Origin: Lytechinus pictus
Taxonomy: Eukaryota
Length of the DNA stretch: 64,000 bases
Assembly: GCF_037042905.1 (NCBI RefSeq)
Contig: NC_087251.1
Location: forward strand, 42,038,001 to 42,102,000
Reading direction: 5' to 3'
A program made the position numbers and the translations under genes. Under the pieces are notes generated by a model. That model was not told the origin of the DNA and searched no databases. It saw only the letters and a list, made by a program, of their open reading frames with translations. Shown piece by piece: positions 35,333 to 62,934 of the stretch (position 1 is its first letter; every line of letters begins with the position of its first letter).

Positions 35333-36761
35333 TACAAGAATGAATCATGCATGTAAAAGCAGAATTCAAAGAAATCCTATAAAAGTTGATATTATTTATC
35401 TAGAATAAACTAAAAGCACAATGAGTTGAATTATACCTTTTCTAAAATAGTGTGGGGGTAAATAGGTTTTAGGTTTTAATTCAGTGTAGTAGCTGCAGCA
35501 CATCACACGTTATGTCACATACCATGACGTAATGAGCCAAATATTTTGTGAGATACACAACATAGCACATTGGGCAAAGATAACATTTTTTTAAAGTTGC
35601 GAGTGAGCCAAAATTTATATTTTTATGAAAAGAAAATATAAGTTGTTGATAGGTTTTGACATATTATTCAGAAAACTATATCATATTTCAGCTTGTTCAT
35701 TTATTTTCTTTTCTTTTTTTCCCCTTCATTTCTAATATTCATTGGTCTTGGAACGTTGGGGGTCTTGTGTCCCCAAGCCCCCCCCCCATCCCCCATCTGT
35801 GTATAAGCCAATGATCACATTTCTTTATAAAGGACCAATTAGAGCAATAATGAGCTAAAGTTGCAAACCATTACATCCATGAGTTGTATTTTAGAAAGAA
35901 ACTAAATAATGACTATATATTTCTGAGAGAGAGAGAGAGAGCAGATTCTAGATTTGTCGAGGAAGCATTCATATTATATTTCACAATGCAAAATATCCCC
36001 CTTTCTAACCGCTACGATTTTACGATATTTTTTTTCTTCGAATTCATCTATCTTGATGGATAAAAAATGAAAAGAAAGCAAGTTTTTGTGGTGAATCTTG
36101 GCGATGTAGCTGGGCTTACGTGGTTAAATCCACGTTGGTTAAAATAGAATTAGTTGAGATCACTAGTATTAATTTCCAAACTCCTTCCCACAAATCTCTT
36201 GACGTTCATTGCAAATGATGGGCAGAATTAGCGAATCTATACCGTGCAAAGAATATCACTTTACTTGGCAATTTTCACAATTCGATATTGTGTAGAACAA
36301 CATGGTCATGTGACCTTGGCGGAGACTAGTCAAAAGTACACAGTAACGTCACTCATCTATAAGGTGTCCTAAAAAAAACACGAGTGTCGATTTGAGTGCT
36401 TTCTGTGTAACGAAAGTTCTTGACGTAAAGCTCAATGATATGTTTTGAAGTACAACTGGCCCGATTTCAAGCGATTAACGAGGTATATGATTTCATTTCT
36501 CCTTGGAAATTCTATTTTCTAATTCAATTTGTCACTTTCGATGTGTGAGACGTAGCCATCAACAAGAATCCTGCATTCATTCATTAATTTCACAGAAAAT
36601 TTCGAGTGGAAAACAAATTGCAAATAATCTTCATCCTGTAAGTTTGCATTATCAGTGTTTTGTCTTATTTAAAGCCACTCTCAAACTATATTCATGAAAA
36701 TACACTTGCTTTAGATGAAAATGAAAACAAAAAGTTTGAAAAAGAATCTAGCGGTTGGATA

Positions 36762-37042
36762 CACTGTTAGAAAATTTATCCTTAAAATAAAAGAAGTTCC
36801 TGCAGCAGAGTCTCGAGAACACCTGTAATCTTACCAGATTGCGTAATCTTACAGGAAATTGGTATTGGAGTATGGAACCTTACAAATTTCCTTTAAGAAA
36901 ACACCCTTTTCCCCTTTTTAAACAGACCTGTTCTGTTACATCGCAGAAAAATTCCTGTTTTATGAATTTAAAGAATGATTATGTTACTGCTTTCTGCAAA
37001 ATCTTCTTTTTTTTCTGTAAAATCAGGTTTTTTAAAACAGTG
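36762..37042 (-). mobile_element. CACTG...CAGTG element, copy 3 (inverted)
   Basis: TA-CACTGTTAG ... AAAACAGTG-TA, the reverse complement of copies 1 and 2. Confidence 0.85.
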
Positions 37043-37992
37043 TACATGATTATTAAACTTTCAAAACAACTACAGTACTACACCCTTCTTTGGCATCACG
37101 GCAATTGAACAAAACATTCCCTAATTTCATATTTTGTACACCAAAACATATTTTTTCGTAATTCACGATTATATTACTAGAAAATGATAATTCTTTATAG
37201 AACCGAATTAACTATGAATTAATACAAGGAATTATGAAACAGTCGACATACTGCGACCACGTAAGAAATCAAAATTTCTTACCAGCAAAAAATACATAGC
37301 TATTTCAGAAACGAGGTCGAGGAAGTAAATCACATGTATTTGGATGATTAAGTTGCAAAATGATTGATTTTCTGCTGGTAAATGATAACTAAAATACACT
37401 TATCAAACAAGTAAAGAAATGGAAATCAAAGAGCGGCTTTCAGAAAAGAGTAAGAAAGACGAACTGATTATTTTTTTTTTATGTTTGCTGTTTCATTTCA
37501 TTTTATTAGAAATGTAACTTCAACGATGATAGCATAATGATCATAAATTTAAGAAATTTCTTTCTTTAAACTTGTGATTCAATGAAATGGGCACAGGGTT
37601 TATATTTTTTTTATAGAATGATATAAGGATAAGGATTATTGTTTATGTAGTCTTGGAGATTAGGTTTAATGTTTGGCTTAACGTGCAGAAATTCCATCGG
37701 AGGAATTGTCGCCGGAGCAAATGTCATGGAACCCTTAGTCTATTTATTGATTGCAAATTTTTCGTTTAGAAAGAGTTCATCAAACCATAGAGACGAAGCG
37801 TGTTAATTAGCCCAAGTAGACGATAAGGGTGGCGACGAAATTGTATAAAGGAGGTAAATGGCAATGAGATCAAAAGGAGACGAAGTGGTAGTTAGGCAAA
37901 CTAGGATTAGACCAAATGGGAATGGACGAAGTGGAAAGTATGTTAGACGCAGACGGGGTGTTGACCAATCGGCAATTTATAACGGTACCATC

Positions 37993-39177
37993 CAGTGGCG
38001 TACCGTGGGTCACGGCATTGGGGGGGCACCAGCAAAAGTTTTGAGTCACTAAGTGAGCGCGCGAAGCGCGCCCAGCTGCCAGGTATACCTAATAGAGACA
38101 TTTTAAGGACAGTGCCATTAAACGGATATGTCTCTCACTGGTCAAATAATGCGAGCGCGAAGCGCGAGCTTAAAATTTTTGGTATTTAGACCTAAAAAGG
38201 GACATTATAATCAATTTTTGTAATCATGATATGTACCTGTCTCGCTAAATAATGCGAGCGCGAAGCGCGAGCTGAAATTTTTGTAAATATTGACCCCAAA
38301 ACAGAAAGATTTTAAGGACTATATTTTAGGAATGCATTAAGAGTATACACATCTCACCATAGTCATCTAATGCGAGTGCCAATAAGCGCTTGCTGATTTT
38401 GTTAGAATTACATCTAAACATGCACATAAAGCACTTGTAATCATGATTAACATACCCATCTCACTAATCAAATCTTGCGAGCGCGAAGCGCGAGCTGAAA
38501 ATTTAGGAAATTCAGACCTGAAGAGGGGCATTTTAAGGCTTGTTTGTAGAAATTCACGAATACCATACGTAGTTCACTAACCAAATTATGCGAGCGCGAA
38601 GCGCGAGCTGAAAATTTTTGATATTCAGATTAGAAAGAGGGACATTTAAGGACTGATTCTAGGAATCCATGGAGAGCAGACATATTTCACCAATCCACTA
38701 CTGCGAACGTAAGCACGGACAGGAAATGTTTTATATCAAGACCTTAAAATGGGGCAATCACTTTAAGTAGTCATGAAAAAGAAGCATACTTTTGTACATA
38801 AAACAATAACTCGAAGTGCGAGGAATATATTTGGCAGTTTGGTGTATATTGACTTGAAAACGGGAGGTTTTAGTATAACAGGATTATATATCTCGGTAAA
38901 CAGACAATGCGAGCACCAGGAAAAATGAGGACATAGGCCCTGAGCAAATTATGTTTCATAAAGTTATGAAAAAAAATGTTTCTTATGTAATATAACATAA
39001 CATAATTATGATATAATATAACATTATAATGAACAATAATGTCTTCTTTCCCACTTCGTTTTTCTTCCTTTCTCCCTCTTTTTCTCCTTTTCCCCGTTTT
39101 TTTTTTTTTTTTTTTTTTTTTTGTCAGCCGATTGGAGGGGCACGTGCCCCCCATGCCCCCCCGTAGTTACGCCACTG
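37993..39177 (+). mobile_element. 1185-bp non-autonomous hAT-type element
   Basis: TIRs CAGTGGCGTA/TACGCCACTG and a perfect 8-bp TSD GTACCATC (37985-92, 39178-85). Internal ~95-120-bp diverged tandem units. Confidence 0.9.
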
Positions 39178-41093
39178 GTACCATCTCACCCATTTCCCGA
39201 TAAATAATAACACTTTTGATTTGATATAATAACGTGAAATGTACTCGGCACAAAAGAAATAAGACCTGGCTATAAAAAAAACCCAAACACCACACGATGT
39301 CTATATACTGAAGACAGCATTCAGGGAAATTCTAAACGATTCCAAGAGTAACATCTGTTACTCTCCATCACTCAATAGAAAAAAATAAGCAAATGAATAA
39401 CAGGAGGCGAAGGAAAAGCAAATAAAAAGAAATATTGCATCGGTGTTGGGTTCTGCAGACTGGAGAAATAATCATCGTCTGCAAAGAATCATTTGCATTT
39501 TAACAGTAATAAGATGTTTTGAATTTGTAATCGGATCAGGTGTTTCCATTATTCCAAAATGACGGAGTCGTTATTTTTTATCAAGAAGACGGAGAGAAGT
39601 TTAAACGCTTGATAGCTAAAAGATGAATAATTGATATGCAACACGTGCATATTTGTTTCATTCGGCACTTTGTGTAATCTAGTTCGTATTGCCACCAAGT
39701 TTACATTAATAAACATTACACTATAGAGAATAATACATTTTCAACATTTCAGATATCCTTTAATGCACGGGAGATCATATTTTGACAAATGAGTCGACTA
39801 ATGGTCTGATTTAATTATCTTTGGTTCTTATTGTTGAATAAACTTAGCCGTTATATATATTCATTCAATTCAATTCAATTCAACTTTATTTTATTGTCCA
39901 CATGGAAACAAGTTTTGTTTACATTATAAGGTATTTTCTGTCAAATCTTTTTTTTTTTAAAACTTTTAAGAAGGGTCAACTGCATGGGTACAACTGTAAT
40001 TTTTCATTAATAAGTTATTTGACTATTTTAGTCATATTTGACGAACACAGTTAATTGGTTACTGAAATATTGTTTTAAAATATATGACTCGACATAGCAG
40101 TTGTAACGAGCTGGCTGTTATTCTTAATTAACCTGTTTTTAGAGAGTATAAAGATATAATTTGCTTCATGTAACTGCTTTGTCATTGTCACATTTCCTGA
40201 ATTGTTCACAGTACACGACTTCAGTCAGCGATCTCAAAATCATTTCAACACATTTTGATACTATGATCATTTTAATGTTTTGGAGGGAAAAAAATTCATA
40301 ACCTAAATTGTAATCATCGACTTCCTTGACAAATATTCCTGTACATCTGACCTTTGATTTACGAAAAGAAGAATTGTAAAAAAAAAATATAACGGTCATT
40401 ATTTGTGATTATGATCATCTAGCACATTGCGTGTATATTCATGAGCATGATCATGAACAGGATGTCAGTCATCTGTTTCATTACAAGGATTTCGACGTAG
40501 CCGATCTCTATAAAAACTCGATTAATGATTCAGAATTTGTTCGATATAATAGATTAAGAAAAAAACAACAGATTGAATGATTTTTTTTTAAACCTCACTT
40601 TATTTAGGAGGATACCCAAATATTTACCGTATACCGTTCTGATAACTTTTGAGTTCTATCTGTTAAGGTAATTGACCTTGTACTCGAAACACCATTACCC
40701 CTTTTGGAAAAATAACGGCCTTGGTGTACTCATAATGAAGTACTCCTCACGTTTTCCTCTTTCCCGCCTTTCTCGTGAATCTTCACACCACTTCTTCAAA
40801 ATAGTCGTTCGGTCACTGGATCATTACTTTAAAAAATCATGGAGATATGATAAATGGTAATATTTATGCCTACCTCAATGATAAAAATACACCAAAGATT
40901 ATGGATTCATTGCTTTATGTTTGCATGCAATACTAATTATTTCATAGATCTAATTTCATCTTCGCTATTTCTGAAATAAAACGAAAATAAATATATACTC
41001 AATAATCATGTAAATCTTCTATCCCTTTATTAACTGTTATACTGTGTGTATGTTAAGTACTACAACAAACATTTACATAGAGGGCGTTGCAGC

Positions 41094-41369: not shown

Positions 41370-42078
41370 GTTGCTGCATTAAAAATCAATATAGCCCCGA
41401 AATGATAATTGATATTTAGCATAATCAGGTTTATAAAGTAATGATCATTGGAAGTTATCGTCATAACGTAATTGGCAACTAAACTGTTTGGTTATAACAA
41501 CCTGGTTACATCAATCACTTTTACTTATTGCTATTGCTATGTCATTAGTGTGAATGATTCTCTGATTAAGAAATGACACCCTTAAAAATACGATGTTGTT
41601 ATTTATATTGTTATCTTCTTTCCTACAGTTTATCATAAATCTGTTATGCTCTTTAAGTACCCCAACAACGGGCGAGCGGATCCAGAGGCTGAGCGGACCT
41701 TGCCTTCCTTCCCCATCCTTTTATGTCTGATTTTCATTTGTGCGTGTGTGTGTGTGGGGGGGGGGGGGGTGCGTGAAAAAGTGCCCCACCTCTTGTCAAT
41801 CCTGGGCCCTACCCCTTATTGGTTCTCCATATCTCTGACATAGCAGCAGCGTGCATCGAATTCGACGGTGTAGACTGTAGACCCCCCCCCCCCCATTGTC
41901 CTCATCTGCTCCGTGTTTTAGCCCACCCCTTTTCCCCAATCATATTTTGATGCTTGAATGAATGAATGATAATTTTCCATTTCATTTTTGTTAAAGATTA
42001 AAATCATACTTTCATTATGTTAGCGCAGAAGCTGAAGCAACATACTTCTCCTCTATGCTCCACTCCCAAATCCTTTAA

Positions 42079-42498
42079 AGGACAAGTCCACCCCAACAAA
42101 AAGTTTGTTTGAATATAAAGAGAAAAATCCAACAAGCATAACACTGAAAATTTCATCAAAATCGGATGTAAAATAAATAAGTTATGGCATTTTAAAATTT
42201 CACTTAATTTCACAAAACAGTTATATACACATCCTGGTTGGTATACAAATGAGGAGACTGATGACGTCATCCACTCACTATTTCTTTTGTATTTTATTAT
42301 ATGAAATATTATAATTTTCTCCCCATTGTCAAGTGAAACATCGAATAATTCCTCCCTGAACATGAGGAATGAGCATTGTTTAATACTATATATAAATCAG
42401 TCAAGCTGGTCCTTATTGTCAAATCTATTTTCAGCGTTTTGCTAGTCGATATTTCTCTATTTATTAAAATCAACATTTTTCTGGGGTGGACTTGACCT
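42079..42498 (+). mobile_element. Kolobok/T2-like MITE, copy 3 (internally deleted)
   Basis: TTAA-AGGACAAGTCCACCCC ... GGGGTGGACTTGACCT-TTAA, about 165 bp shorter than copy 1. Confidence 0.85.
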
Positions 42499-45400
42499 TT
42501 AAGTAGACGAATCATATTAAATGCCCAAATTCCATATTGATAAACTTTAGGTGTTATCTTGGTTTGCACATTTTTGTTCAATTCTCAAATGTGGCTTTGT
42601 GGATATAACGGGTGTATGGAGGATCGGGGGGGGGGGGTAAGTCTCGCCCATCAGTTCACAGTTCATAATAAGTACATAAAATTATAGGTTGTTGTTTAGG
42701 TTTAACCATAACGTGATTACTTCTCTATCTCAAGATGTCATAGAACTCTTCTTTAATCAGCAATTAGTTTAGTGCTTGATCTCTCCCGTTTCCAACATTT
42801 GAAACCACGACCACTTTTATGCTACAGTCATACTATTGAAGTCGATCACAGACCGATCAAAGCTATGACGTTATTTCGAATGGCATTAAGTCAATCGTTT
42901 TGGAGGCGGTTCTTTTAGTATGAATGAATACAGACAATAACAATGAAGCTCCTCCCTCATCGTTAAACATTCAACCCTCCTTTCACCACAGAATGTCCTC
43001 GATCTAGCTTTCTCGAATGAATCCTTGATGTCGCTTTCTCGCTGATTGGGATTCCGTATTCTAAATTCTCAAAAAAATATGTTTTTACTCGGTGCGTGTG
43101 ACGACGCAACGGAAGGCCTTGCGTTTTTGCTAACGGTGGTGGTAAATCGAAATTCGACCAAGAAGTGACTGTACTTTTCATTCAGGGTCTATTGTCTTCA
43201 TGCCACTAGTGATCTTGGCTGGCATGTTTAGAGTATGAGTTTGAGAAAAAGCATGGGAGATAAGAAAAAAAAAACAATGGATGATTATCTGGGAATGATT
43301 CCGTTCAATGCAATGTGTAATATATTATGAAGAATAAAATTGAAGGACGCACATGTGAGATATATAAAATCTACATATTATAAAATCTACTGATTATCTG
43401 AGGGAGAGAGAGAGAGGGGGGGAGGGGGAGGGGGAAGCGAGGGGGGCATGAGGAGATTGGTAAAAGGGAGAGAGAGAGAGAGAGAAAAGAAGAGGTAATA
43501 CTAAAGTGGGCCGCTAGAGGGTATTCATACACACAGAGAAAAAAAATTATGGAGAGAAAAGAACGGGAAGAAAAATATAATGCCTATTTATGTTGCCTTT
43601 ATTCTAGATTATATCATAAAACATGAACAATTTGAATGTAGGCCAGAGGTTAGTATCAATTGCCAGTAAAGTATGGCCTATACTGTCAACTATTTTAGAT
43701 TAATTGATGTAGGCATCCATTTTCTAAATAAAGAAATGATTACACCCATATTTTAATTTGGTAAATTCTCTTTCATATCTTACGACATGGATATTTTTGT
43801 AATCATTGGGTAATAAAAAAAGGGGGAGAATTTTTTTTTTTAAGCCATAGGATGATTATCAAAAAAAATATCAAGACTGTGCAGTATTATTGTTACCGAT
43901 AGATGGCGTTATGCGCTAAAAAATACAGGGGTTCAACATGACTTGGATAGGTGGGACCGTCGTGGGACCCCCTAGAACTCAAAAATGTTTTTGTTTTTCA
44001 CCCTAATCACATCTTGATCAGTTATTTTTTTTGACATGGAATCAACAACTGACCAATCCCAACCACTTTAAACAGTAAAAACCGAAAGGAGATTAATCTG
44101 ATATACAGATAATGATTATGTGTTTTACCCCAAAAAAACCCAATAAATCACCAAGAGCTGATACAAAAATATGTAATGTCAGGATTTGACATAAGATCGC
44201 TACAATTCACACAGCTCAATCGCAGAGGTGTCACTAGAAATTTTTGGCAGGGATGGGTAACCGGAAACCCCCCAAATGTGATAATGTTTTCTTTTTTTTA
44301 TGAAGAGTAAAATATTGTATTGAACACTTACAGCTTTAATTTGATGCTTGTGAATTCTGGAGGGGGTAATTTAAAAAAAGTCAGGATGGAGAAACAAAGG
44401 CTCTAACTCCCCACCCCTTGGTGCCGCCACTGAGCAACCAGGCAGTGTATATATATATATTTCAATGTATTCCTCTGGTAAAAAAACAAACAAAAACACG
44501 ACAAAACTTCAAATCCGTCGTAGATGGCGTAGTGACAAGTCAAAGCACTGCCGGATGAATGTTTTCAAAATGTATCTTATCTTTATTCCAACAGAAGATA
44601 AGCAGTTGATTTATGTTTATCTGGAGGCCTTACATGAATTGAAAGTGTCATGATTCGGAGGAAGTCTAAACCTATTAGCTATTATGGCCTCAAGAGGGAC
44701 CTTTCATTCAAATCATAATTGAAAACAAAATTGATTGACCCACAGTGAGGAAGTGAAACTTAGGACGGTAAGGGGGGGGGGGGCGCCCGGGGGGGGGGTG
44801 GGCTTCCAAGTCTCCTCATCAACACTTAGTCCAAATCGTCCAAAGTGATTTAGCAGCCAAATTATTCAATTCAATTTCAATTTATTAGTAGTAGACACAT
44901 GTACGTTTATGATATACACCGGGGATATATACATTCCCGGGTACCGGATACAGAAAATATAACAGAAATAAAGTGAAGTAGAAAAAAACAAAAAATACAA
45001 ATAAAATGAATAATCGGTAGAGTCCATGGTCTGCGAAGACAAAAAAGGTGCAAAATACAAAATATAAATAAAGCGTCGCAGTTCGCACATGCAGCTTACC
45101 ATACTTTACTGCGGAAAATATGGTAGGCACTTATGATCCAAGTTTGAAAGGAGACTCGTAAAATGACGTCAGTCTCGCCGATGAATATTCATTAGATCGT
45201 GGTCGTGCGTGTTCAATACACACTGCGTGCAGGCATGCAGATAGTTATATGCGAGGAACTTTGGCTCCAGAGACAAGTTGTCAAATAACGTGTGTGTGTG
45301 TGCGTGTGTGTACCATCGGCTGGTAGTATGCCATGCTGTCTAAGACTTCAAACGCGTCGGAGAGAGTGCATGGCAATTCGGTAAAACGAAGTTTCCGATA

Positions 45401-45756
45401 TAAAGAGATAATAAAATAACACTATGTACAGTACGCCCGGGGGGGGCCACTTACATTGACGAGTGGATACCATGCGCGACCAAAAAAACACGTAAAAAGG
45501 ATGTCTTTTTCAAGAGAGGGCACGTTACGTACGTAATTAACGTGATAAGGGTGTCAAAAACACAAAAATATTGAAAAAAGGGTATCTATTTCCAGTACGT
45601 TCAGAGGCAAATGTCAGATCAGGGGAGGCAGGAGTACAATCAGGTTTTTTTAAAGGGAAGAATAGTGTAGAATAAAAGGTATTATATATAGCCAAATAGG
45701 TGAGGGAAGTGAACAATGATGTTTTTAAAAAAAAGAATGAATATACCTTACCTGAA

Positions 45757-47891
45757 TATTATGGTGAAGCCAATTTAAAAGGAGGTGAGACAAGTTTCAA
45801 TGGAGGTTTTAAAAAAGAATAAACTGTATTATGGTGAAGCCAATTTAAAAGGAGGTGAGGCAAGTTTCAATGGAGGTTTTTAAAAAGAATAAACTGTACT
45901 ACAAATTATGGTGAAGCCAATTTAAAAGGAGGTGTGAGGCAAGTTTCAATTAACGTTTTTAAAAAGAATAAACTGTACTACAAATTTAAAAGGAGGCGAG
46001 GCAAGTTTCAATTGAGGTTTTTAAAAAGAATAAACTGTACTACAAATTTAAAAGGAGGCGAGGCAAGTTTCAATGGAGGTTTTTAAAAAGAATAAACTGT
46101 ACTACAAATTATGGTGAAGCCAATTTAAAAGGAGGTGAGGCAAGTTTTAATGGAGGTTTTTAAAAAGAATAAACTGTATTATGGTGAAGCCAATTTAAAA
46201 GGAGGTGAGGCAAGTTTCAATGGAGGTTTTTAAAAAGAATAAACTGTACTACAAATTATGGTGAAGCCAATTTAAAAGGAGGTGAGGCAAGTTTTAATGG
46301 AGGTTTTTAAAAGGAATAAACTGTATTATGGTGAAGCCAATTTAAAAGGATGTGAGGCAAGTTTCAATGGAGGTTTTTAAAAAGAATAAACTGTATATGG
46401 TGAAGCCAATTTAAAAGGAGGTGAGGCAAGTTTCAATGGAGGTTTTTAAAAAGAATAAACTGTATTATGGTGAAGCCAATTTAAAAGGAGGTGAGGCAAG
46501 TTTCAATGTTTCCGATATAAAGAGATAATAAAATAACACTATGTACAGTACGCCCGGGGGGGGCCACTTACATTGACGAGTGGATACCATGCGCGACCAA
46601 AAAAACACGTAAAAAGGATGTCTTTTTCAAGAGAGGGCACGTTACGTACGTAATTAACGTGATAAGGGTGTCAAAAACACAAAAATATTGAAAAAAGGGT
46701 ATGGAGGTTTTTAAAAAGAATAAACTGTACTACAAATTATGGTGAAGCCAATTTAAAAGGAGGTGAGGCAAGTTTTAATGGAGGTTTTTAAAAAGAATAA
46801 ACTGTATTATGGTGAAGCCAATTTAAAAGGAGGTGAGGCAAGTTTCAATGGAGGTTTTTAAAAAGAATAAACTGTACTACAAATTATGGTGAAGCCAATT
46901 TAAAAGGAGGTGAGGCAAGTTTTAATGGAGGTTTTTAAAAAGAATAAACTGTATTATGGTGAAGCCAATTTAAAAGGAGGTGAGGCAAGTTTCAATGTTT
47001 CCGATATAAAGAGATAATAAAATAACACTATGTACAGTACGCCCGGGGGGGGCCACTTACATTGACGAGTGGATACCATGCGCGACCAAAAAAACACGTA
47101 AAAAGGATGTCTTTTTCAAGAGAGGGCACGTTACGTACGTAATTAACGTGATAAGGGTGTCAAAAACACAAAAATATTGAAAAAAGCCGGGTATGGAGGT
47201 TTTTAAAAAGAATAAACTGTACTACAAATTATGGTGAAGCCAATTTAAAAGGAGGTGAGGCAAGTTTTAATGGAGGTTTTTAAAAAGAATAAACTGTATT
47301 ATGGTGAAGCCAATTTAAAAGGAGGTGAGGCAAGTTTCAATGGAGGTTTTTAAAAAAGAATAAACTGTACTACAAATTACGGTGAAGCCAATTCAAAAGG
47401 AGGTGAGGCTAGTTTCAATGGAGGTTTAAAAAATAAACTGTATTATGGTGAAGCCAATTTAAAAGGAGGTGAGGCAAGTTACAATTGAGGTTTTTTAAAA
47501 GAATAAACTGTACTACAAATTTGAAAGGAGGTGAGGCAAGTTTCAATGGAGGTTTTTAAAAAGAATAAACTGTATTACAAGTTATGGTGAAGCCAATTTA
47601 AAAGGAGGTGAGGCAAGCCTCAATGGAGGTTTTTGACAAGAATAAACTGTATTATGGTGAAGCCAATTTAAAAGGAGGTGAGACAAGTTTCAATGGAGGT
47701 TTTAAAAAAGAATAAACTGTATTATGGTGAAGCCAATTTAAAAGGAGGTGAGGCAAGTTTTAATGGAGGTTTTTAAAAAGAATAAACTGTATTATGGTGA
47801 AGCCAATTTAAAAGGAGGCGAGGCAAGTTTTAATGGAGATTTTTAAAAAGAATAAACTGTATTATGGTGAAGCCAATTTAAAAGGAGGTGA
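45757..47891 (+). repeat. 70-bp tandem array in the left arm of the foldback element
   Basis: Unit ATGGTGAAGCCAATTTAAAAGGAGGTGAGGCAAGTTTCAATGGAGGTTTTTAAAAAGAATAAACTGTATT with ~63- and ~77-bp variants. Interrupted at 46508-46702 and 46997-47194. Confidence 0.95.
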
Positions 47892-50254
47892 TCACATCCT
47901 AAGCTGTAAAATGATTTATCTTGTTAATATTGATCAATAATATCCCTCGCTAGTACTTCATTGAATGCAGAAGAAGTTTGGTGAGAGCTTCAACAAATAA
48001 GAGAACAAGATTTGGGGTTCACTTAAGCATGCGATGTGTAATATGTAGTTCAACTACTTAGCAGTGAGCAAAACACGGATATCAAAGTCTTGTATTTTGT
48101 CTTCAACTTTTACAACCTCACATTTTGACAGTATGAAGAAATTTCTTTTTTTTTTCGGATAAACCAATATTCTAAATATGCGTTTGGAAAACTGAATTAC
48201 TATTTTGGTTATTTTCTACGAACCTTCCCTGGCAACTTATTGTTGATATTTGGGTGGCTGGCCACATTTGTTTTGAGAAAAAATATCAAAGAGTATATGA
48301 AAAAAATATTTATGTAAAAAAGCTTGCCTAGCTGTTGGTATTTTCTTCTATTGTACTTTGTCATGTAACTCTGGTAGATTTCATTTCGTTACACAAAATG
48401 GGGTTCAGTATTCAGAAAAACCATTAACCTTGCCTCAACCACAACAGTACTTGCCAAACTGGATAAATCAACATTATATCAAGCTGTGTAGAAGAACTTA
48501 ATGATCATGTAGATACCATTAAGTGCATACATATATAATGTCTTTCAAGCTGTATGACAAAAATATTCTTTTCCATCCAACATCAGCTTCTACTATTTTT
48601 TAAGGTTAGTTTTTATTGTCATGTTGGCAAATTGTGAAATAGTTCATGTTGAAATATGTTGTATTACCTGTCATGCATTTGTAATGTTATTTTTTTAGAA
48701 TATATTCTGTCATCATTTTCAGTACATAAAAGTTTATTCAATGTATGCCTTTACCAAAGTTGGCCATAAGCACAGTGGGTACCAACTATCACTGAAGACA
48801 ACACAACAATTACTCAAAATATATGCATAGCCTTATGAATGTACAAGTCAATAAAATCTACTATGACTACATAGCTTTTTTTTTGTGCAACACAGTCATA
48901 TTTCATTTGGATCAATTCAAAATTGAGTGGTGTTTTGGGGGTAATGCTATGGTAACTGCAGTTCTGTTGTCCTCTGACAGTTGGTGTTGTAAGGATGTGA
49001 TTGGCAGTGTGTGGACGTCATGTTATAAGAGAAAAAAGAAAGTTAAAGTGAGAGTGTTGGCTTTGAAATGGACTCAACCTATGAAAGTTAAAGTTTGTGC
49101 TGCAGAAACTGGTGTGGTAGTGGGATGATAATGATGATGAGGAACAGGGCCGGTATTCAATGCTACTCTTAAAGCCACAATTTCAAGTATATTTTACTCA
49201 GTATTTTGCAAAAGTAAAATACTTATCCATCTTTGGTATTCAATTGCATTTTTTTTGGGCTAAATATTTTGCTTAAATGTAAGTCAGCCATCTACTAGAC
49301 TTAAGTCTACATATACAAAAATGATACGCACAGAAATACATTCACACATTTGGCACTATTTGGCTCAAAACTTATAACATCACAATGGGTATTAGTATTT
49401 AGTTCAATTTGGATAAGGTAAATTCTGAGATCTGATCTGCATACAAGTTTAAGCATTTTGATAAGCCAGCCAAATTGCTATAAGTAAAATACTTACAAAA
49501 TCAAAACTTAGAATTTAATAGGCGGCCGAGGTATTATTTTCTTCCAGAGGACATGTACAGATTTCTTGTTGACAAAGGATGACATGATGATTATTTTGCA
49601 AATATGGCTTATTAAAAAATATATTATGTATATTCCATTTCAGTGACAATTGCATTTTTGGGGAGGGGATATTACGTATTTGGGAATGGAAAAGTTCAAA
49701 ATTAATGCAAACTTAACCTATTTACGCAGGGGGGGGGGGGGCTCTGAGCTCTGCGATTTAAAAAAAAAAAGTCTTTTGCATGTTTTGAGACCAGTTTTGC
49801 GAAGCCCGGGTACTGGGTTCTGAAAATTACCAAACAATTTGTAAGTGCATATCAGACAAAAATGGCTCAAAATTGTGATATTTGTGTACCACGTCAATGG
49901 AATATGCGTTTTCAACCAAAATTCATGAATGCCTAATTGTTTTTAGTTTTGTTGAACTAAACTGATTTATTTTATGCTGTTACGAGAGTCCGAGCATCGT
50001 TGAAAAAAAACAATGCAATACAAAGGTAAAAACACAAGAAATACATTATCGAGGACACCACAAAGAGTTTCTAAACCAAAAATTAGAACATTTGGAGCTT
50101 TATTTAGGGAGTTAGAGGAATAGGTATAGTATACTAATTATGCACAAATGAGCATAATCAATTAATAGCAATTTGCATGAAATAAATAACCACACAATTT
50201 TGTGGATTATTAAAAGCAATTGCGATCTTTTTCTTCACTATTCATTGTTTTTAG

Positions 50255-51445
50255 AAACCTCATTGTAGACTTGCCTCATGCACCTCTCAAGATGGCTTCA
50301 TCATTTGAATTATATTCTACACTTATCATTCTTTAAAAAAAATCATTGTAGACATGCCTCACCTCCTCTCAAATTGCCTTCACCATAACTTGTAATACAG
50401 TTTATTCTTTTTAAAAACCTCCATTGAAACTTGCCTCACCTCCTTTTGAATTGGCTTCACCATAATTTGTAGTACATGCAGTTTATTCTTTTTTTAAAAA
50501 CCTCCATTGAAACTTGCCTCACCTCCTTTTAAATTGGCTTCACCATATACAGTTTATTCTTTTTAAAAACCTCAATTGAAACTTGCCTCACCTCCTTTTA
50601 GATTGGCTTCACCATATACAGTTTATTCTTTTTAAAAACCTCCATTGAAACTTGCCTCACATCCTTTTAAATTGGCTTCACCATAATACAGTTTATTCTT
50701 TTTAAAAACCTCCATTAAAACTTGCATCACCTCCTTTTAAATTGGCTTCACCATAATACAGTTTATTCTTTTTAAAAACCTCCATTGAAACTTGCCTCAC
50801 CTCCTTTTAAATTGGCTTCACCATATACAGTTTATTCTTTTTAAAAACCTCCATTGAAACTTGCCTCACCTCCTTTTAAACTGGCTTCACCATAATACAG
50901 TTTATTCTTTTTAAAAACCTCCATTAAAACTTGCCTCACCTCCTTTTAAACTGGCTTCACCATAATACAGTTTATTCTTTTTAAAAACCTCCATTGAAAC
51001 TTGCCTCGCCTCCTTTTAAATTTGTAGTACAGCTTTATTCTTTTTAAAAAACCTCCATTGAAACTTGCCTCACCTCCTTTTAAACTGGCTTCACCATAAT
51101 ACAGTTTATTCTTTTTAAAAACCTCCATTAAAACTTGCCTCACCTCCTTTTAAACTGGCTTCACCATAATACAGTTTATTCTTTTTAAAAACCTCCATTG
51201 AAACTTGCCTCGCCTCCTTTTAAATTTGTAGTACAGCTTTATTCTTTTTAAAAAACCTCCATTGAAACTTGCCTCACCTCCTTTTAAATTGGCTTCACCA
51301 TAATACAGTTTATTCTTTTTAAAAACCTCCATTAAAACTTGCCTCACCTCCTTTTAAATTGGCTTCACCATAATACAGTTTATTCTTTTTTAAAACCTCC
51401 ATTGAAACTTGTCTCACCTCCTTTTAAATTGGCTTCACCATAATA
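50255..51445 (-). repeat. 70-bp tandem array in the right arm (reverse complement of the left array)
   Basis: Same unit on -. The innermost units (50255-50390) are degenerate. Confidence 0.95.
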
Positions 51446-52011
51446 TTCAGGTAAGGTATATTCATTCTTTTTTTTAAAAACATCATTGTTCACTTCCCTC
51501 ACCTATTTGGCTATATATAATACCTTTTATTCTACACTATTCTTCCCTTTAAAAAAACCTGATTGTACTCCTGCCTCCCCTGATCTGACATTTGCCTCTG
51601 AACGTACTGGAAATAGATACCCTTTTTTCAATATTTTTGTGTTTTTGACACCCTTATCACGTTAATTACGTACGTAACGTGCCCTCTCTTGAAAAAGACA
51701 TCCTTTTTACGTGTTTTTTTGGTCGCGCATGGTATCCACTCGTCAATGTAAGTGGCCCCCCCGGGCGTACTGTACATAGTGTTATTTTATTATCTCTTTA
51801 TATCGGAAACTTCGTTTTACCGAATTGCCATGCACTCTCTCCGACGCGTTTAAAGTCTTAGACAGCATGGCATACTACCAGCCGATGGTACACACACGCA
51901 CACACACACACGTTATTTGACAACTTGTCTCTGGAGCCAAAGTTCCTCGCATATAACTATCTGCATTCCTGCACGCAGTGTGTATTGAACACGCACGACC
52001 ACGATCTAATG

Positions 52012-52642
52012 GTTGGTTGGTGTTGGAGTTTAGTTGGCGCTCTTCAATCTGGTAGATTATCTGCGCCAGGTCGTTTCCATGTTGCTTAATTCCCGCTTCA
52101 ATGTCCTCGGCCGGCGTTAGACTAGTCTGACCTGTCATATAGCGAGGTGCAATATAATTAAGATTAGTTACCTCCACCATTAAATTGTGCATTTTTGTAC
52201 TTCGTAGTATGCAAACTTTTATAAGAAGCTATGTCGAAACACAATTTTAGTAGTCTATAAGAATTAACATCACTAAATATAATCCTCAGAACAAAAGGAA
52301 GCGAGAGGGAGAGATGGAGAGAGATCAGTGGAATATTCTTATTCGAATCTCTTTGTTTTTTTCACATAATTCAGGATTACTTTATAATCTGCATTTCTTC
52401 CCAATAATGTTGCTAGGTCTGATATTGGCGTATTTAATTTCAGGCTTCTTTGCATAGTTCTTCTTTCTCTTTCATATTTATTACAATGTAGTAAAAAATG
52501 TTCTATTGTCTCAGGAACCTGACAATGTGAACATAGACCATTTTCATGTTGATTACATTTATACTGATAATAATTCAATTTACATTTTCCAAGTCTTAGC
52601 CGGTGAATCATAGTCTCTTCAAATCGAATGAGACCTTGATAA
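52012..52642 (-). mobile_element. 5'-truncated I/Nimb-group non-LTR retrotransposon inserted in the right TIR
   Basis: ORF 52339-52611 reads RLRLGK..LN...C-x2-C...ETIEHFLLHC..Y...R (ORF2 C-terminal CCHC finger). It has a 3'UTR TGGCGC...GCGCCA stem-loop (52035-68) and a CCAA-type tail. CTAATG is duplicated at 52006-11 and 52643-48, and the insert is absent from the left arm. Confidence 0.88.
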
Positions 52643-52666
52643 CTAATGAATATTCATCGGCGAGAC

Positions 52667-52674
52667 TGACGTCA
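52667..52674. promoter_or_regulatory. Full palindromic CRE (TGACGTCA) inside the right TIR, ~145 bp upstream of the RMDN ATG
   Basis: Motif seen directly, with a mirror copy at 45164-71. Function untested. Confidence 0.35.
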
Positions 52675-52817
52675 TTTTACGAGTCTCCTTTCAAACTTGG
52701 ATCATAAGTGCCTACCGGAAAATATGAACTGTGACCTGCTGCGCTGCTGAATGTACGGGAAATCATTAATTTTCTCCTTTTTTGCATTACATTTCTCTCG
52801 TGCATTTTAATATAAAG

Positions 52818-53176
52818 ATGTTGAAAAATCTAATGACTTGGAAGGAATTTGGACTCGGTCTTCTTATAGGAGCAAGTGGAACGATTGTCGTCACTCACTT
52901 AGTAAACAATATTTGGGCAAGTGATGTGCAACGGCTCGCAGAAGCTACCAAGGAACTCCAACGGGAGTGCAGGGAGCTCCGGGCAGCTCTCCGAGCGTCC
53001 TCCGACGAGACGGATGGTGAAGTTCGTAGACGAGGAGGACGACCAAGAACACCTGGAGACACTCGGCCTCGAAGTCGGGGTGGTGGTATGAAGAGAGTTG
53101 GATCAGAGATAATATCATTGCACCCTAGCACAAGTGATGAAGATGAAGATCTTGACTTTGAAGAAGCTTACGAGGG
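52818..53176 (+). CDS. RMDN3: RMDN-like coding exon 1 (hydrophobic anchor, coiled coil, acidic FFAT-like tract)
   Basis: MLKNLMTWKEFGLGLLIGASGTIVV...VQRLAEATKELQRECRELRAAL...SDEDEDLDFEEAYE. Donor GG|GTGAAT, phase 2. Alternative ATG at 52833. Confidence 0.88.
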
Positions 53177-56100
53177 GTGAATAACATTTTATTTCCATGA
53201 TGATTTATTACAGTCACGAGTCAGCGCAGCTCTTAGACAGCTGGCAGCCGTCTGTTTCGAGGAGTTTTTTAACTTTTTTTTTAACGGAGTTCAGCTGAAC
53301 AACCAACATAACAGAGACCGAAGCTTTTGGTCTACGCAGCTCTATACTATAGTGGATCATATTCCCGAACACTTTTCATGAATTCAAAACAATATTCTCA
53401 TAAACTTCACCAAACTTTCACCATAAACACTCAAATACTTAGTAACTTACAAAATATAAACATGTAAAATTTTTGCTGAAATCATTTTTCTTTTTCATGA
53501 TATTATCAGCTTCCAATCTACCTCAAGCGAAGTTCGTGCAGGTGTCACTCCACTTCACTACCGCTACACTATGCTCCACCTACCCGAACTTCGAGACCGT
53601 GAACTCGATCTGATATTCCGAGTGACAAAGGTGGGATTTTATGGGGGGAAAATATAAAATTCATGCAACATCACAATCTTTAAAAACAAGTAAAACTAAT
53701 ATTGTTACTTTACACAAAGTTTCACTTCTTTTCCATGCTTCTATCAGTCTCAAAATTGGTGATTTAGAGCCAACGTGAAGTTCCTCACACGTATAAATAA
53801 TTTGCTGCCGATTTCAAAACATCGCATGTGCGAGGGTCCAAGCTCGGACCGGACCCTGTACCTCGCGCATATCGCATCCGCATGCGATGTTTTGAAATTG
53901 GCAGCGAATTATTTATACGTGTGAGGAACTTCATGTTGGCTCTAAATCACCAATTTTGAGACTGATAGAAGCATGGAAAAGAAGTGAAACTTTGTGTAAA
54001 GTAACAATATTAGTTTTACATGTACTTGTATTTAAAGATCGTGATGTTGCATGAATTTTATATTTTCCCCCCATAAAATCCCACCTTTGTCACTCGGAAT
54101 ATCAGATAGAGTTCATGGTCTCGAAGTTCGGGTAGGTGGAGCGTAGTGTAGCGGTAGTGAAGTGGAGTGGAGCCTGCATGAACTTCGCTCGAGGTACTTC
54201 CAATCAGACCCTCAAACTTCGCATGTGAAATATTTTGGTCACTTGAAAATGGTATGATATCATCACCGAACGTGTGTTTTCTATGGGTAAAGTTGAGAAA
54301 ACAAAATCACTGATGAGCTATTTACCATAATGTATTATTTTGTGAATATGAAGACTTTTTAAACGTGTTTTTGACAATTTTTCTAATCAAGTTCCCTTTG
54401 GAAGGATGTTGAAAAACTTTTGAGCGTATGAAATTATTACTGACACGTATTATGTGCACGTTCAGTAATACGAGGCCGGTTGGTAATACAATCACTCACT
54501 ATACAAGTCAGATCAACATTAGATTTATTAGATCTGAGTTGAACCTGGTAGATGTACTAGGTAGTAATTATTGGGGAAATGGGTCGATGTTTAATATTGT
54601 TATCAATTACTGGTTAAATTGAGATATCAAGACAAAAGTGCTAGTTGGTACTTGGTTCTTACTCTAAATAAACGCCACCCATCAGTTTATAATTTGAATG
54701 TTATTTCCGAAAGATCTCCAGATTTATAAAGCAAAATAATTGCAAACTTTTAATTTAATAAGAATATAGTGAGAATTATATGTCAAACATTTTCCCTGGC
54801 TCCCCTACTTTTAACAAGGTTCAAGATCTTGAGGTCCTTGAGTTCTTGAAGAGAGGAATTGCAAGGCATAATTTCTGGAGGCATTTCCAGCAAGTACATT
54901 ACCATTATGTATGGTAGTGGATCGTATTACCGAACACTTCATGAATTCAATCATATCAAACACATTATTCTCATAAAATTCACCAAACTTTCACCATAAA
55001 TACACAATTACCTAAAAATATAAATATGTAAAAATTTTGCCGAAATCGTTTTTCCTTTTTACGATATTAGCTTCCAATCGGACCCCTCTTCGCATGTGAA
55101 AAATTTTGGTCACTTGAAAAAGGTATCGTATTACCGAACGTGTGTTTTCTATGGGAAAAGTTGAGAAAACAACAAAATCACTGATGAGCTATTTTGACCA
55201 TATTTTATTATTTTTAGAATATTAAGACTTTGAAAATGTGTTTTGACCATTTTTCATCATCTTTCTATTTAAGTTATCTTTGGAAGGATGTTGCAAAATT
55301 TTGAGCGTATGAAATTATTTTCTGATGCGTATGAATGCGCGCGTTCGGTAATACAAGGCCGGTCGGTAATACAAGCACTCACTATACATGTGTCATGAAT
55401 TAAGACAAGATCTAGGGCAACCAAAGGTGATAGATCATGAGCAATGATAATATGATGATGATGTTGATGAGTGCAGTGATTATTGATATGAATGAATTGG
55501 TATGCAATGTTCATTATAACAGATGACAATTCTCTTTTTATCCTTTTCCAGAGTACATGCAGCTGTATTAGTTGTAGACATAACCTGTAGGTTTGTCTTA
55601 TTACTTGCCTGACCAAAACTAACCATAAAACTTTATTTTTTCAAATGAAGATGAATGTTTTTGATAAATCTCATTCATGTAGCTATTCATGTTAGAAAAA
55701 CAAAAGACATGCACTACCAGCCATCTGTACACTCACCTTAAACCTATTTCAGATAAATTTCAAATTTGAATATCATAAGGAAAAATCAACAAATGACAAA
55801 TTAATCTGGTCTTCAGTTTCAATTATTGTAGAGCAATGCCATTTTTCTTTTAGACACATTTCTAAATTGCAGCACGTGAGAAAGGGCACAAGAAATCAAT
55901 AAGGTCAATATAAAGAGGGGCATCAAAGCCAATCAACAGGTTATCCACTGCCATACATGGCATCCAATGGCCTTGCGTTAGTCTGCAAGTACAGACTCGA
56001 ATTTGACACTTTAATTAAAACCATGTCTAGAGTTAAGACTAGACTCCAAACTCTCTGTTTGAGCCAGCCATAGTACAGTGAATCTAGTCTCACTACTTCA

Positions 56101-62100: not shown

Positions 62101-62569
62101 CATCCCCCTTTATGCCTAGGTTATTGCTTGAGGCATTATGTTTTTGGACCATCCTACCATCTGTTTTACCTTTGTAAGTATTCTTGTGACTTCAAAGAAT
62201 ATATAAGTATGAATACTATCATTGTTAATTTACGTCACAGATACATTGCTTTGTATAAGAGTGGTACAGTCAAATTTCATTGCAAATGTTTTACTTTGAA
62301 GAAAAAAAAACACTTAAAGAGTTAGCAATTTTCCTTTGGCTCCTGGGGCCTGTTCCATAAAACTTTTGCCATAAAAAAATTTGGCAAACAAAAATAATGC
62401 CATTGACACTTATACATTAAAACACTCCGGCCAAAAAAATGCCATTGTTTTTCTTTTATGCAACAGGCCCCTGTAGTCATTCTTTATTATATTATATTTT
62501 TTCTGTATCTGTCTGCAGGAACACGAAGTACGACAAGAAGCGAAGGAACTTCTTCAGAAGTATGAATGA
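52818..62569 (+). CDS. RMDN3: Regulator of microtubule dynamics protein (RMDN2/3, PTPIP51/FAM82-like), 8 coding exons, 382 aa; paralog assignment uncertain
   Basis: join(52818-53176, 56249-56426, 56885-56996, 57870-58006, 59888-59965, 60675-60827, 61779-61859, 62519-62569) = 1149 nt. All introns are GT-AG with consistent phases. Family motifs: EFLWRLTRA, HKYYAI, HIERALELRP, LGWMQRKAA, FEKAEELQP, AKCY. Confidence 0.92.
53348..54503 (+). mobile_element. ~480-bp repeat (probable MITE), copy 1, interrupted by the 678-bp palindrome
   Basis: TATAGTG...CACTATA ends. Colinear with 54915-55386 once 53519-54205 is removed. Confidence 0.75.
53519..54196. mobile_element. 678-bp palindromic (foldback/Mutator-like) MITE in RMDN intron 1
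   Basis: ~310-bp inverted arms (TACCTC...GAGGTA) with a ~50-bp spacer. The 9-bp TSD CTTCCAATC lies at 53510-18 and 54197-205. Confidence 0.92.
54915..55386 (+). mobile_element. ~470-bp repeat, copy 2 (uninterrupted)
   Basis: Homologous to 53348-54503, with a single CTTCCAATC at 55071-79. Confidence 0.75.
56249..56426 (+). CDS. RMDN3: RMDN-like coding exon 2
   Basis: ttacAG| (G)FTTPEYP...EIDKLFDG...AKESQ |GTATGC. Confidence 0.9.
56885..56996 (+). CDS. RMDN3: RMDN-like coding exon 3
   Basis: tttAG| YSSESEFLWRLTRAK...KRLVFE(G) |GTAAGA. Confidence 0.92.
57870..58006 (+). CDS. RMDN3: RMDN-like coding exon 4
   Basis: ttgcAG| REHAKRAIDLNDESSDSHKYYAITQG...GNEYK |GTAGGT. Confidence 0.92.
59070..59823. 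mobile_element. Highly degenerate Kolobok-like MITE interrupted by a SINE
   Basis: Shares ACTCACTATTT...TTATATGAAATGTGA and CATTTGCATAC motifs with the three younger copies and ends CCTTTAA. The left boundary is approximate. Confidence 0.45.
59274..59555 (+). mobile_element. Full-length tRNA-derived SINE with L2-like tail
   Basis: A box TGGCTCAGTGG (59283-93), B box GGTTCGAATCC (59327-37), core ACCCAGGTG..AATGGGTACC, and tail GCACTATATAAAT..(TAT)n. Confidence 0.9.
59888..59965 (+). CDS. RMDN3: RMDN-like coding exon 5
   Basis: atcAG| QHIERALELRPEEPYLNHLYGRFLFS |GTAAGC. Confidence 0.92.
60675..60827 (+). CDS. RMDN3: RMDN-like coding exon 6
   Basis: tttAG| IANLGWMQRKAAVMMYG...FEKAEELQP...YSAK |GTGAGT. 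Confidence 0.92.
60948..61017. repeat. 70-bp hairpin, probable collapsed MITE
   Basis: ATACCTCGGTCACATTTGCTCTACG pairs with CGTAGAGCAAATGTGACCGTGGTAT (1 mismatch), with a 20-nt loop. Confidence 0.8.
61779..61859 (+). CDS. RMDN3: RMDN-like coding exon 7
   Basis: aacAG| CYIAKGQTDVAVEFLRKAISDPGKSFE |GTGTGT, phase 0/0. Confidence 0.88.
62346..62470. mobile_element. 125-bp PIF/Harbinger-like MITE
   Basis: CTG-GGGCCTGTTCCATAAAA ... TTTTATGCAACAGGCCC-CTG (3-bp CWG flanks). Confidence 0.7.
62519..62569 (+). CDS. RMDN3: RMDN-like terminal coding exon 8
   Basis: ctgcAG| EHEVRQEAKELLQKYE* (TGA at 62567-69). Confidence 0.88.
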   Translation, partial: EHEVRQEAKELLQKYE

Positions 62570-62934
62570 GATCGGATAGAGGTTCGAAGAAAGTACGACA
62601 AGAAGCACAGGAACTTCTGCAGGGATATGAATGAGGTCAGATAGAGGGTTAAAGGTCTACAAACCATGCTGCTCAACTAGCACAAAACAAAGATACATCT
62701 TGGTTATCATGCATGTTTACAAATCCCACCCATCCATAGGCGTAAATATTTGATGTTTGCTTGAATTTATGCCAGTGCTCCCATCTATTCAGATGTATGA
62801 ATGTGCTATCCCATTTGTCTATCGTGTGATTTGTCATTGTATGATATTACATGATAACTAGCTTAGATAGAATTAAGGTCCCTTCATAGCAAAATTATGT
62901 AAATTAATAAGGTGGTTACAAATCCAGTTTGTGT

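Follow-up and report, generated by a model that had tools for sequence, protein, structure and literature searches.

Most foldback transposons are Mutator-like and carry target-site duplications (TSDs) of 8-11 bp (PMC4079207, PMC6446971), and the Mutator superfamily is recognised by a TSD of that length together with terminal inverted repeats (TIRs) of more than 100 bp (PMC6446971, PMC5225508). In maize, 20 of 33 Mutator (Mu) alleles gave Mu-initiated transcripts, and 15 of these 20 involved TIR sequence only (10.1101/2023.06.05.543741). Transposon-derived start sites are well known in animals in general. The TU elements of Strongylocentrotus purpuratus, reportedly described by Liebermann et al. 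in 1983, are said to have long modular inverted arms around a variable middle, with short tandem repeats of about 15 bp in the outer parts and a TSD of 8 bp. The present analysis concerns a foldback element of another sea urchin, Lytechinus pictus (RefSeq GCF_037042905.1, NC_087251.1:42,038,001-42,102,000, forward strand), situated immediately upstream of a gene for a regulator of microtubule dynamics protein 1-like protein (RMDN). This whole 64,000-nt stretch is called the window, and all coordinates are positions in it, position 1 being its first letter. With moderate confidence, we think that a gene-less foldback, likely a Mutator element mobilised in trans, was inserted before RMDN after L. 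pictus had split from a relative, and that its right terminus now likely acts as an outward promoter.

The element occupies positions 45122-52716 (7595 bp) between exact direct copies of a 9-bp TSD; with this base composition, two given 9-mers would agree by chance with a probability of about 8e-6. The outermost 68 bp of both arms are identical. Further in, left-arm positions 45190-45760 match right-arm positions 52011-51442 at 99.5% identity, with exactly two substitutions (position pairs 45234/51967 and 45349/51852) and one insertion or deletion in a G-run. Two further substitutions occur in the next 141 bp, so that the arms differ overall at 4 of 780 positions (0.5%). The left arm is 2770 bp long and the right arm 2477 bp, or 1840 bp without the 637-bp piece of a long interspersed nuclear element (LINE), and the centre between them measures 2348 bp. 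Each arm consists of about 630 bp of outer non-tandem sequence followed by an array with a 70-bp consensus, for which 23 anchor matches were found on the left and 16 on the right, degenerate units being undercounted. The hallmarks of a foldback are thus all found: TIRs alike over 780 bp, arm tandem repeats in unequal number, and a TSD with dispersed copies of the terminus (see below). We regard the interval as a real foldback insertion with very little reservation. That a fold-back error of the assembly, or repeats brought together by chance, produced the structure is hardly credible. No long read across both arms was seen and the array unit counts may be mis-assembled, but the TSD is exact, the arms differ by the LINE, by two templated insertions and by the order of their array units, independent contigs cross the right junction, and a relative has what appears to be the empty site.

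These measurements bear out the preliminary description of the locus, which had recognised a 7595-bp element with inverted ends and a 9-bp TSD, put the arms at about 2.8 kb (left) and 1.8 kb (right, excluding the LINE), noticed by eye about two substitutions and one G-run difference over the outer 630 bp or so, and placed the right end 101 bp from the RMDN ATG at 52818. Its statement that there is no open reading frame (ORF) holds for a transposase, since none of the five centre ORFs tested matches Pfam, but not for the nested LINE, which keeps the end of an ORF (103 aa) with 92% identity to a protein that bears RNase H.

The identity of the gene is clear. Exon 1 is 100% identical to the 382-aa regulator of microtubule dynamics protein 1-like of L. 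pictus, all eight exon translations are present in that protein exactly and in order, the reading frame is intact, and exon 6 scores above the Pfam RMD1-3 threshold. Between the end of the element and the start codon lie 101 bases.

Sequencing runs were compared with positions 51450-53510 of the window at 88% likeness, using four (X1, X5, X12 and X21) of the 23 listed runs; the loose ends and pieces cited below are among the matches listed. Runs X1, X5 and X21 belong to organism A, which is taken to be L. pictus on the strength of contigs that match the window without difference. Run X12 belongs to organism B, a relative that is about 3% different here (15/461, or 3.3%, between the species). 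The raw RNA run X21 was sampled at about 6 in 100. Word shares of runs X1-X8 (0.62-0.66) are unable to separate filled from empty alleles and were not used.

In both L. pictus runs with contigs, which come from two studies, bases of the terminal repeat are joined to exon 1. Record 8 of X1 (1956 nt) covers 52707-53176 and includes 10 such bases, and record 24 of X5 (960 nt) covers 52690-53176 and includes 27, each with 0 differences from the window. Both contigs leave the window at the exon-1 donor, 53176, and the depth over intronic positions 53451-53510 is 0 in X1, X5 and X21; the contigs are therefore most likely spliced mRNA. An empty allele would match only 3 of the 10 upstream bases in X1 and 7 of the 27 in X5 and cannot supply them, so that both contigs derive from the filled allele. 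Judged by these contigs, the filled allele is present and expressed in two studies. Gene transcripts with TIR sequence at their 5' end are also one mark of a Mu-type TIR promoter, the other being a start mapped inside the TIR, and because the RMDN transcripts include bases of the right terminal repeat, the element is more than a spacer.

Further upstream, the depth in X5 is 0 over 52278-52622, and over most of this interval the only contig in X1 is another LINE copy with 15 differences, with no continuous read-through. On this evidence the RNA starts, or is spliced in, within the last 95 bp or so of the element. Positions 52623-52690 contain three AG dinucleotides, all of them GAG. GAG is a rare splice acceptor, which argues against an acceptor in this segment. 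Because the upstream LINE is uncovered and a good acceptor is lacking there, transcription would start between about 52623 and 52707, near the palindrome at 52667. This palindrome and its left-arm counterpart at 45164 are putative sites of the cAMP response element (CRE) type.

A different explanation is that a native promoter to the left of 45113 still drives RMDN and that the 7.5-kb element has become an intron removed by splicing, with the donor-like GT at 45123 as its 5' border and a cryptic acceptor within the right terminal repeat as its 3' border. The left terminus does read as a donor-like GTAGGC, an AT-rich, TATA-like stretch was seen by eye near 45064, and splicing of Mu insertions is a recognised possibility (10.1101/2023.06.05.543741). 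However, the X5 contig continues without a break across the AAG at 52707-52708 as far up as 52690, the higher AGs within the covered limit are all GAG, and in maize read-through or spliced products were undetected in seven of the seven alleles tested (10.1101/2023.06.05.543741). We consider an intron of this kind improbable.

The element might also be a bystander, the core promoter being in the 92-bp host leader and its starts being dispersed, with a minor share inside the terminal repeat. The observed/expected (o/e) ratio of CpG is 1.29 over 52649-52817, which resembles a dispersed CpG-type promoter; X21, a different haplotype by two exon variants, expresses RMDN too; and the junction depth is not resolvable from contigs. 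Nevertheless, two of the two contig runs reach into the repeat although their depth is low overall (7.6 and 10.9), and rare forms are readily lost at such depths. A promoter confined essentially to the host leader thus seems rather unlikely, though worth serious attention.

Several points weigh against the account that we prefer, namely insertion after the split followed by outward transcription from the right terminus. Contigs cannot reveal a transcription start, and the 5' end of the X5 contig, 27 nt into the repeat, is about where repeats break contigs anyway. The junction words may be rarer than the mean contig depth of 7.6-10.9, and the main start could be in the 92-bp leader. X1 and X5 are taken as RNA from their end points, not from run records, and the animals behind them may be kin of the one that was assembled. 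X21 has a depth of about 1 at the leader and no site at which many molecules begin is listed. Splicing from an upstream promoter was neither seen nor directly excluded, the comparison having begun at 51450, and the donor-like opening of the left terminus stands on the same side. That the 124 loose letters of the contig from organism B (see below) match the left flank is presumed. No partner element bearing a transposase was found, no genome-wide search for one having been made. Finally, arm identity dates the insertion only without later homogenisation of the arms.

A bolder version of the account would make this a recent, species-specific replacement of the promoter: the ancestral RMDN promoter would have been displaced by the element, the CRE-bearing terminus would be the main promoter, common or fixed in the species, and the terminal module, which is very abundant in Lytechinus, would be a portable outward promoter. 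This is doubtful, although it merits mention. If true, a portable terminal promoter would allow members of the family to insert into leaders while the genes concerned stay functional.

The relative provides the counterpart of the filled site. Record 16 of X12 (organism B, 888 nt) aligns with 52716-53181 and has 124 unaligned letters on the element side. An empty allele is expected to stop at 52716, because the sequences just upstream of the two TSD copies have a single base in common. The contig therefore appears to fit an empty site. Within organism A, the X21 reads carry two exon variants that are common to organism B, at 53027 (3 of 3 reads) and 53081 (7 of 7 reads), and thus represent a second haplotype. 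Other copies of the element were also encountered: two X5 contigs depart from the terminus at 52716 into different flanks, and both X1 and X5 contain arm pieces unlike either arm of the copy in the window. At the two sites of difference between the arms, the left-arm base is the one found in the other contigs, and the derived changes are therefore those of the right arm. An arm divergence of 0.5%, compared with 3.3% between the species, fits an insertion more recent than the split, provided that no later homogenisation of the arms took place. The preliminary description had called for an empty allele in other individuals or a relative and for further copies of the termini; the contig from organism B leaves at the element boundary, as an empty site predicts, and the X5 contigs carry the terminus with other flanks. 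Its view of a young insertion is supported in that the insertion looks recent, as is its suggestion that the native upstream sequence of the gene was pushed away, the displacement being 7.6 kb.

The arms are composite. Summed contig depths in organism B, expressed relative to a single-copy exon and to be read as ranks only, not as copy numbers, are about 2,200-2,500 for the outer terminal segments, 40-70 for the subterminal parts, 47,000 for a piece resembling a miniature inverted-repeat transposable element (MITE) and 1.4 next to the array. The arm is assembled from modules of very different abundance. Organism B has joints that bypass the LINE (51997>52645 and 51999>52643) and one that bypasses the MITE piece (51616>51789), and since forms without each exist there, both are additions. 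The MITE piece is present in both arms, and therefore was copied between them before insertion, or by later conversion; the LINE is confined to one arm and is thus the last addition. The left array breaks off within a unit at 47891, as though an internal deletion had occurred, and the right array fades inwards into degenerate units. A short shared word, AAGTTTC, is found beside the junction of the 195-bp insert in the left array and would fit template switching during gap repair.

The centre is less easily interpreted. Its first 1.6 kb (47892-49500) has a CpG o/e of 0.23, compared with 0.35 in the gene bodies of the window and 0.65-1.05 in most 2.3-kb blocks between 4.6 and 46 kb. Because this value is gene-body-like, the CpG-poor centre may have been captured from a gene body, or else be an internal region of long standing; we treat this as a lead. 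A 110-aa ORF of the centre had no usable match in the ESM Atlas and low recognition, and Rfam gave 0 matches across 44000-54500.

Taken together, the duplication, the inverted arms and the lack of a transposase point to a non-autonomous DNA transposon, which would have moved by cut-and-paste with a transposase encoded elsewhere and landed in the leader or promoter of RMDN. One contig from the relative indicates a site without it. The two contigs in which exon 1 is preceded by 10 or 27 bases of the terminus, and which end at the donor, would then be products of a start in the terminus. The arms themselves were probably built in several steps: a MITE end was captured, sequence was copied from one arm to the other, the arrays expanded, and templated repair added insertions; the coding region may have been lost by internal deletion, and the LINE would have been inserted late.

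Assignment to the Mutator superfamily is probable. The 9-bp TSD and the long TIRs are within the Mutator limits given above, and no Mutator-like DDE transposase was found among the centre ORFs. The right end, CCTACC, has a 6-base likeness to motif A2 (CCTACCC) of the animal element Tm1, the Repbase rule for non-autonomous elements referring to the terminal 11 bases. Galileo, of the P superfamily, has a 7-bp TSD (PMC3573991) and Merlin an 8-bp TSD (PMC10045372), compared with 9 bp here, and both were rejected. It is unlikely, though conceivable, that the element derives from AcademH (the helicase-bearing Academ) or from another group with 9-bp TSDs, a question independent of that of the promoter. 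AcademH has TSDs of 9 or 10 bp (PMC10045372), and a 5-bp symmetric match is found 18-22 bp either side of the target, a weak signal because 3% of random sites reach it. On the other hand, remnants of a helicase or a transposase are absent from the centre ORFs (none of the 5 matches Pfam), although a fully deleted derivative would lack them too; tandem-repeat arms are typical of Mutator foldbacks, and the terminus resembles the Tm1 motif. No paper on the element or locus was found in a literature search whose scope excluded Repbase, Dfam, most subscription journals and supplements. The exact terminal patterns had no match in metagenome or viral contigs, collections not expected to contain this genome.

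Table. Features of the foldback element and of the adjoining part of RMDN (window coordinates)
Feature	Position	Strand	Basis or remark
TSD, left copy, 9 bp, GGAAAATAT	45113-45121	+	sequence comparison
Left arm outer non-tandem domain, terminus GGTAGG	45122-45760	+	arm alignment
CRE-type palindrome (putative) TGACGTCA, left arm	45164	+	sequence scan
Truncated end of very abundant short repeat (MITE-like), captured	45437-45586	+	depth peak and loose ends in runs
Left array, 62-83-bp units, 70-bp consensus	45757-47891	+	repeat analysis
195-bp exact copy (100% identity) of 45391-45585, within left array	46508-46702	+	
Second copy of 45391-45585 piece	46997-47186	+	from 489-bp higher-order duplication, 3 mismatches
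Non-coding centre, 2348 bp	47892-50239	.	
Right array, 70-bp units; degenerate inner units absent from left arm	50240-51445	-	
Right arm outer domain, inner part	51442-52011	-	arm alignment
MITE-like piece, right-arm copy	about 51610-51765		loose ends at 51610 and 51762-51765
5'-truncated non-long-terminal-repeat retrotransposon (LINE), 6-bp duplication CTAATG, right arm only	52012-52648	-	
Right terminal 68 bp, identical to left; CRE-type palindrome (putative) at 52667	52649-52716	-	
TSD, right copy, 9 bp, GGAAAATAT	52717-52725	+	sequence comparison
Host leader between element and start codon, 92 bp	52726-52817	+	
RMDN1-like exon 1, coding part	52818-53176	+	382-aa protein; seven further exons to 62566

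The surroundings of the insertion contain several other features. The 5' leader folds no better than shuffled sequences (z -0.44) and has three short out-of-frame upstream ATG frames, at 52646, 52724 and 52751 (7, 8 and 19 codons), the first of which falls inside the element. On the other side, a minus-strand ATG directly precedes a donor-like GTAAG at 45095-45102, 11 bp to the left of the TSD. A divergent gene to the left of the element is unsupported, no downstream exon having been found in the window: of 54 upstream ORFs picked by hand from 223 candidates, 50 had no Pfam match and 4 were below threshold, and an exon scan gave one weak minus-strand candidate only. At the far end of RMDN, a 65-bp tandem duplication (62526-62647) spans the stop codon, so that the last codons recur in degenerate form in the 3' untranslated region.

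Other repeats are close by. Intron 1 of RMDN holds a second foldback, 53519-54196, which is 678 bp long and has 310-bp arms that are 96% alike, termini TACC..GGTA and an exact duplication of 9 bp, CTTCCAATC; its empty site can be seen near 55067-55085, in a paralogous copy of the repeat that hosts it. Right behind exon 1, an abundant short repeat at 53182-53403 is bypassed by a contig of organism B (joint 53181>53404) and is another insertion specific to this lineage. A 1.2-kb element at 37993-39178 has short inverted ends (CAGTGG..CCACTG), an 8-bp duplication GTACCATC and internal 113-bp repeats, and we take it to be hAT-like from the length of its TSD. Two MITE-like elements with inverted ends are found at 42075-42502 (flanked by TTAA) and 36760-37044 (flanked by TA).

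The foldback architecture as such is already known. What is of interest here is the likely capture of the RMDN start site, for which the empty site of the relative serves as a natural control: between two related sea urchins, a transposon end has apparently taken the place of the upstream DNA of a conserved gene. Given confirmation of the start site, the locus would offer a directly testable example of turnover in cis-regulation, and this in a species in which reporter assays are done. Furthermore, the arms preserve an ordered series of events, from capture and inter-arm copying through growth of the arrays and templated repair to LINE insertion, and so indicate how modular foldbacks form.

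Compared with the TU elements, the tandem repeats of the present element are internal rather than outer and 70 bp long, and its TSD is 9 bp. In overall design it is like Tetris of Drosophila virilis, which is non-autonomous, has TIRs with an outer non-repetitive and an inner tandem-repeat domain, a heterogeneous non-coding centre and 8-10-bp TSDs, and was likewise assigned to Mutator by inference only (PMC4079207). The Tetris unit, however, is about 220 bp long (PMC4079207); the arms of the present element hold a captured MITE end, templated insertions and a LINE, and the element fronts a gene and enters its transcript. The animal Mutator/Foldback elements Tm1 (PMC3169594) and Muta1 (PMC5225508) share with it TSDs of 9 bp (8-9 bp), composite TIRs, repeat numbers that are unequal between arms, and non-autonomous derivatives with varied internal DNA. 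They differ in having short TIRs, 12-15-bp repeats and known transposases, whereas the present element has arms of 1.8-2.8 kb, 70-bp units and no known transposase. Galileo resembles it in the way its long TIRs lengthen, both through tandem repeats inside them and through the recruitment of internal sequence to the two arms (PMC3573991). At the level of the transcript there is a parallel in maize Mu, where a TIR just upstream of a coding sequence likewise gives TIR-bearing transcripts that lead into an intact frame (10.1101/2023.06.05.543741). The maize cases are induced mutant alleles under epigenetic control; here the locus is a natural one in an animal, seen in two studies, and with its start site confirmed it would be the natural animal counterpart of the outward promoter of maize Mu.

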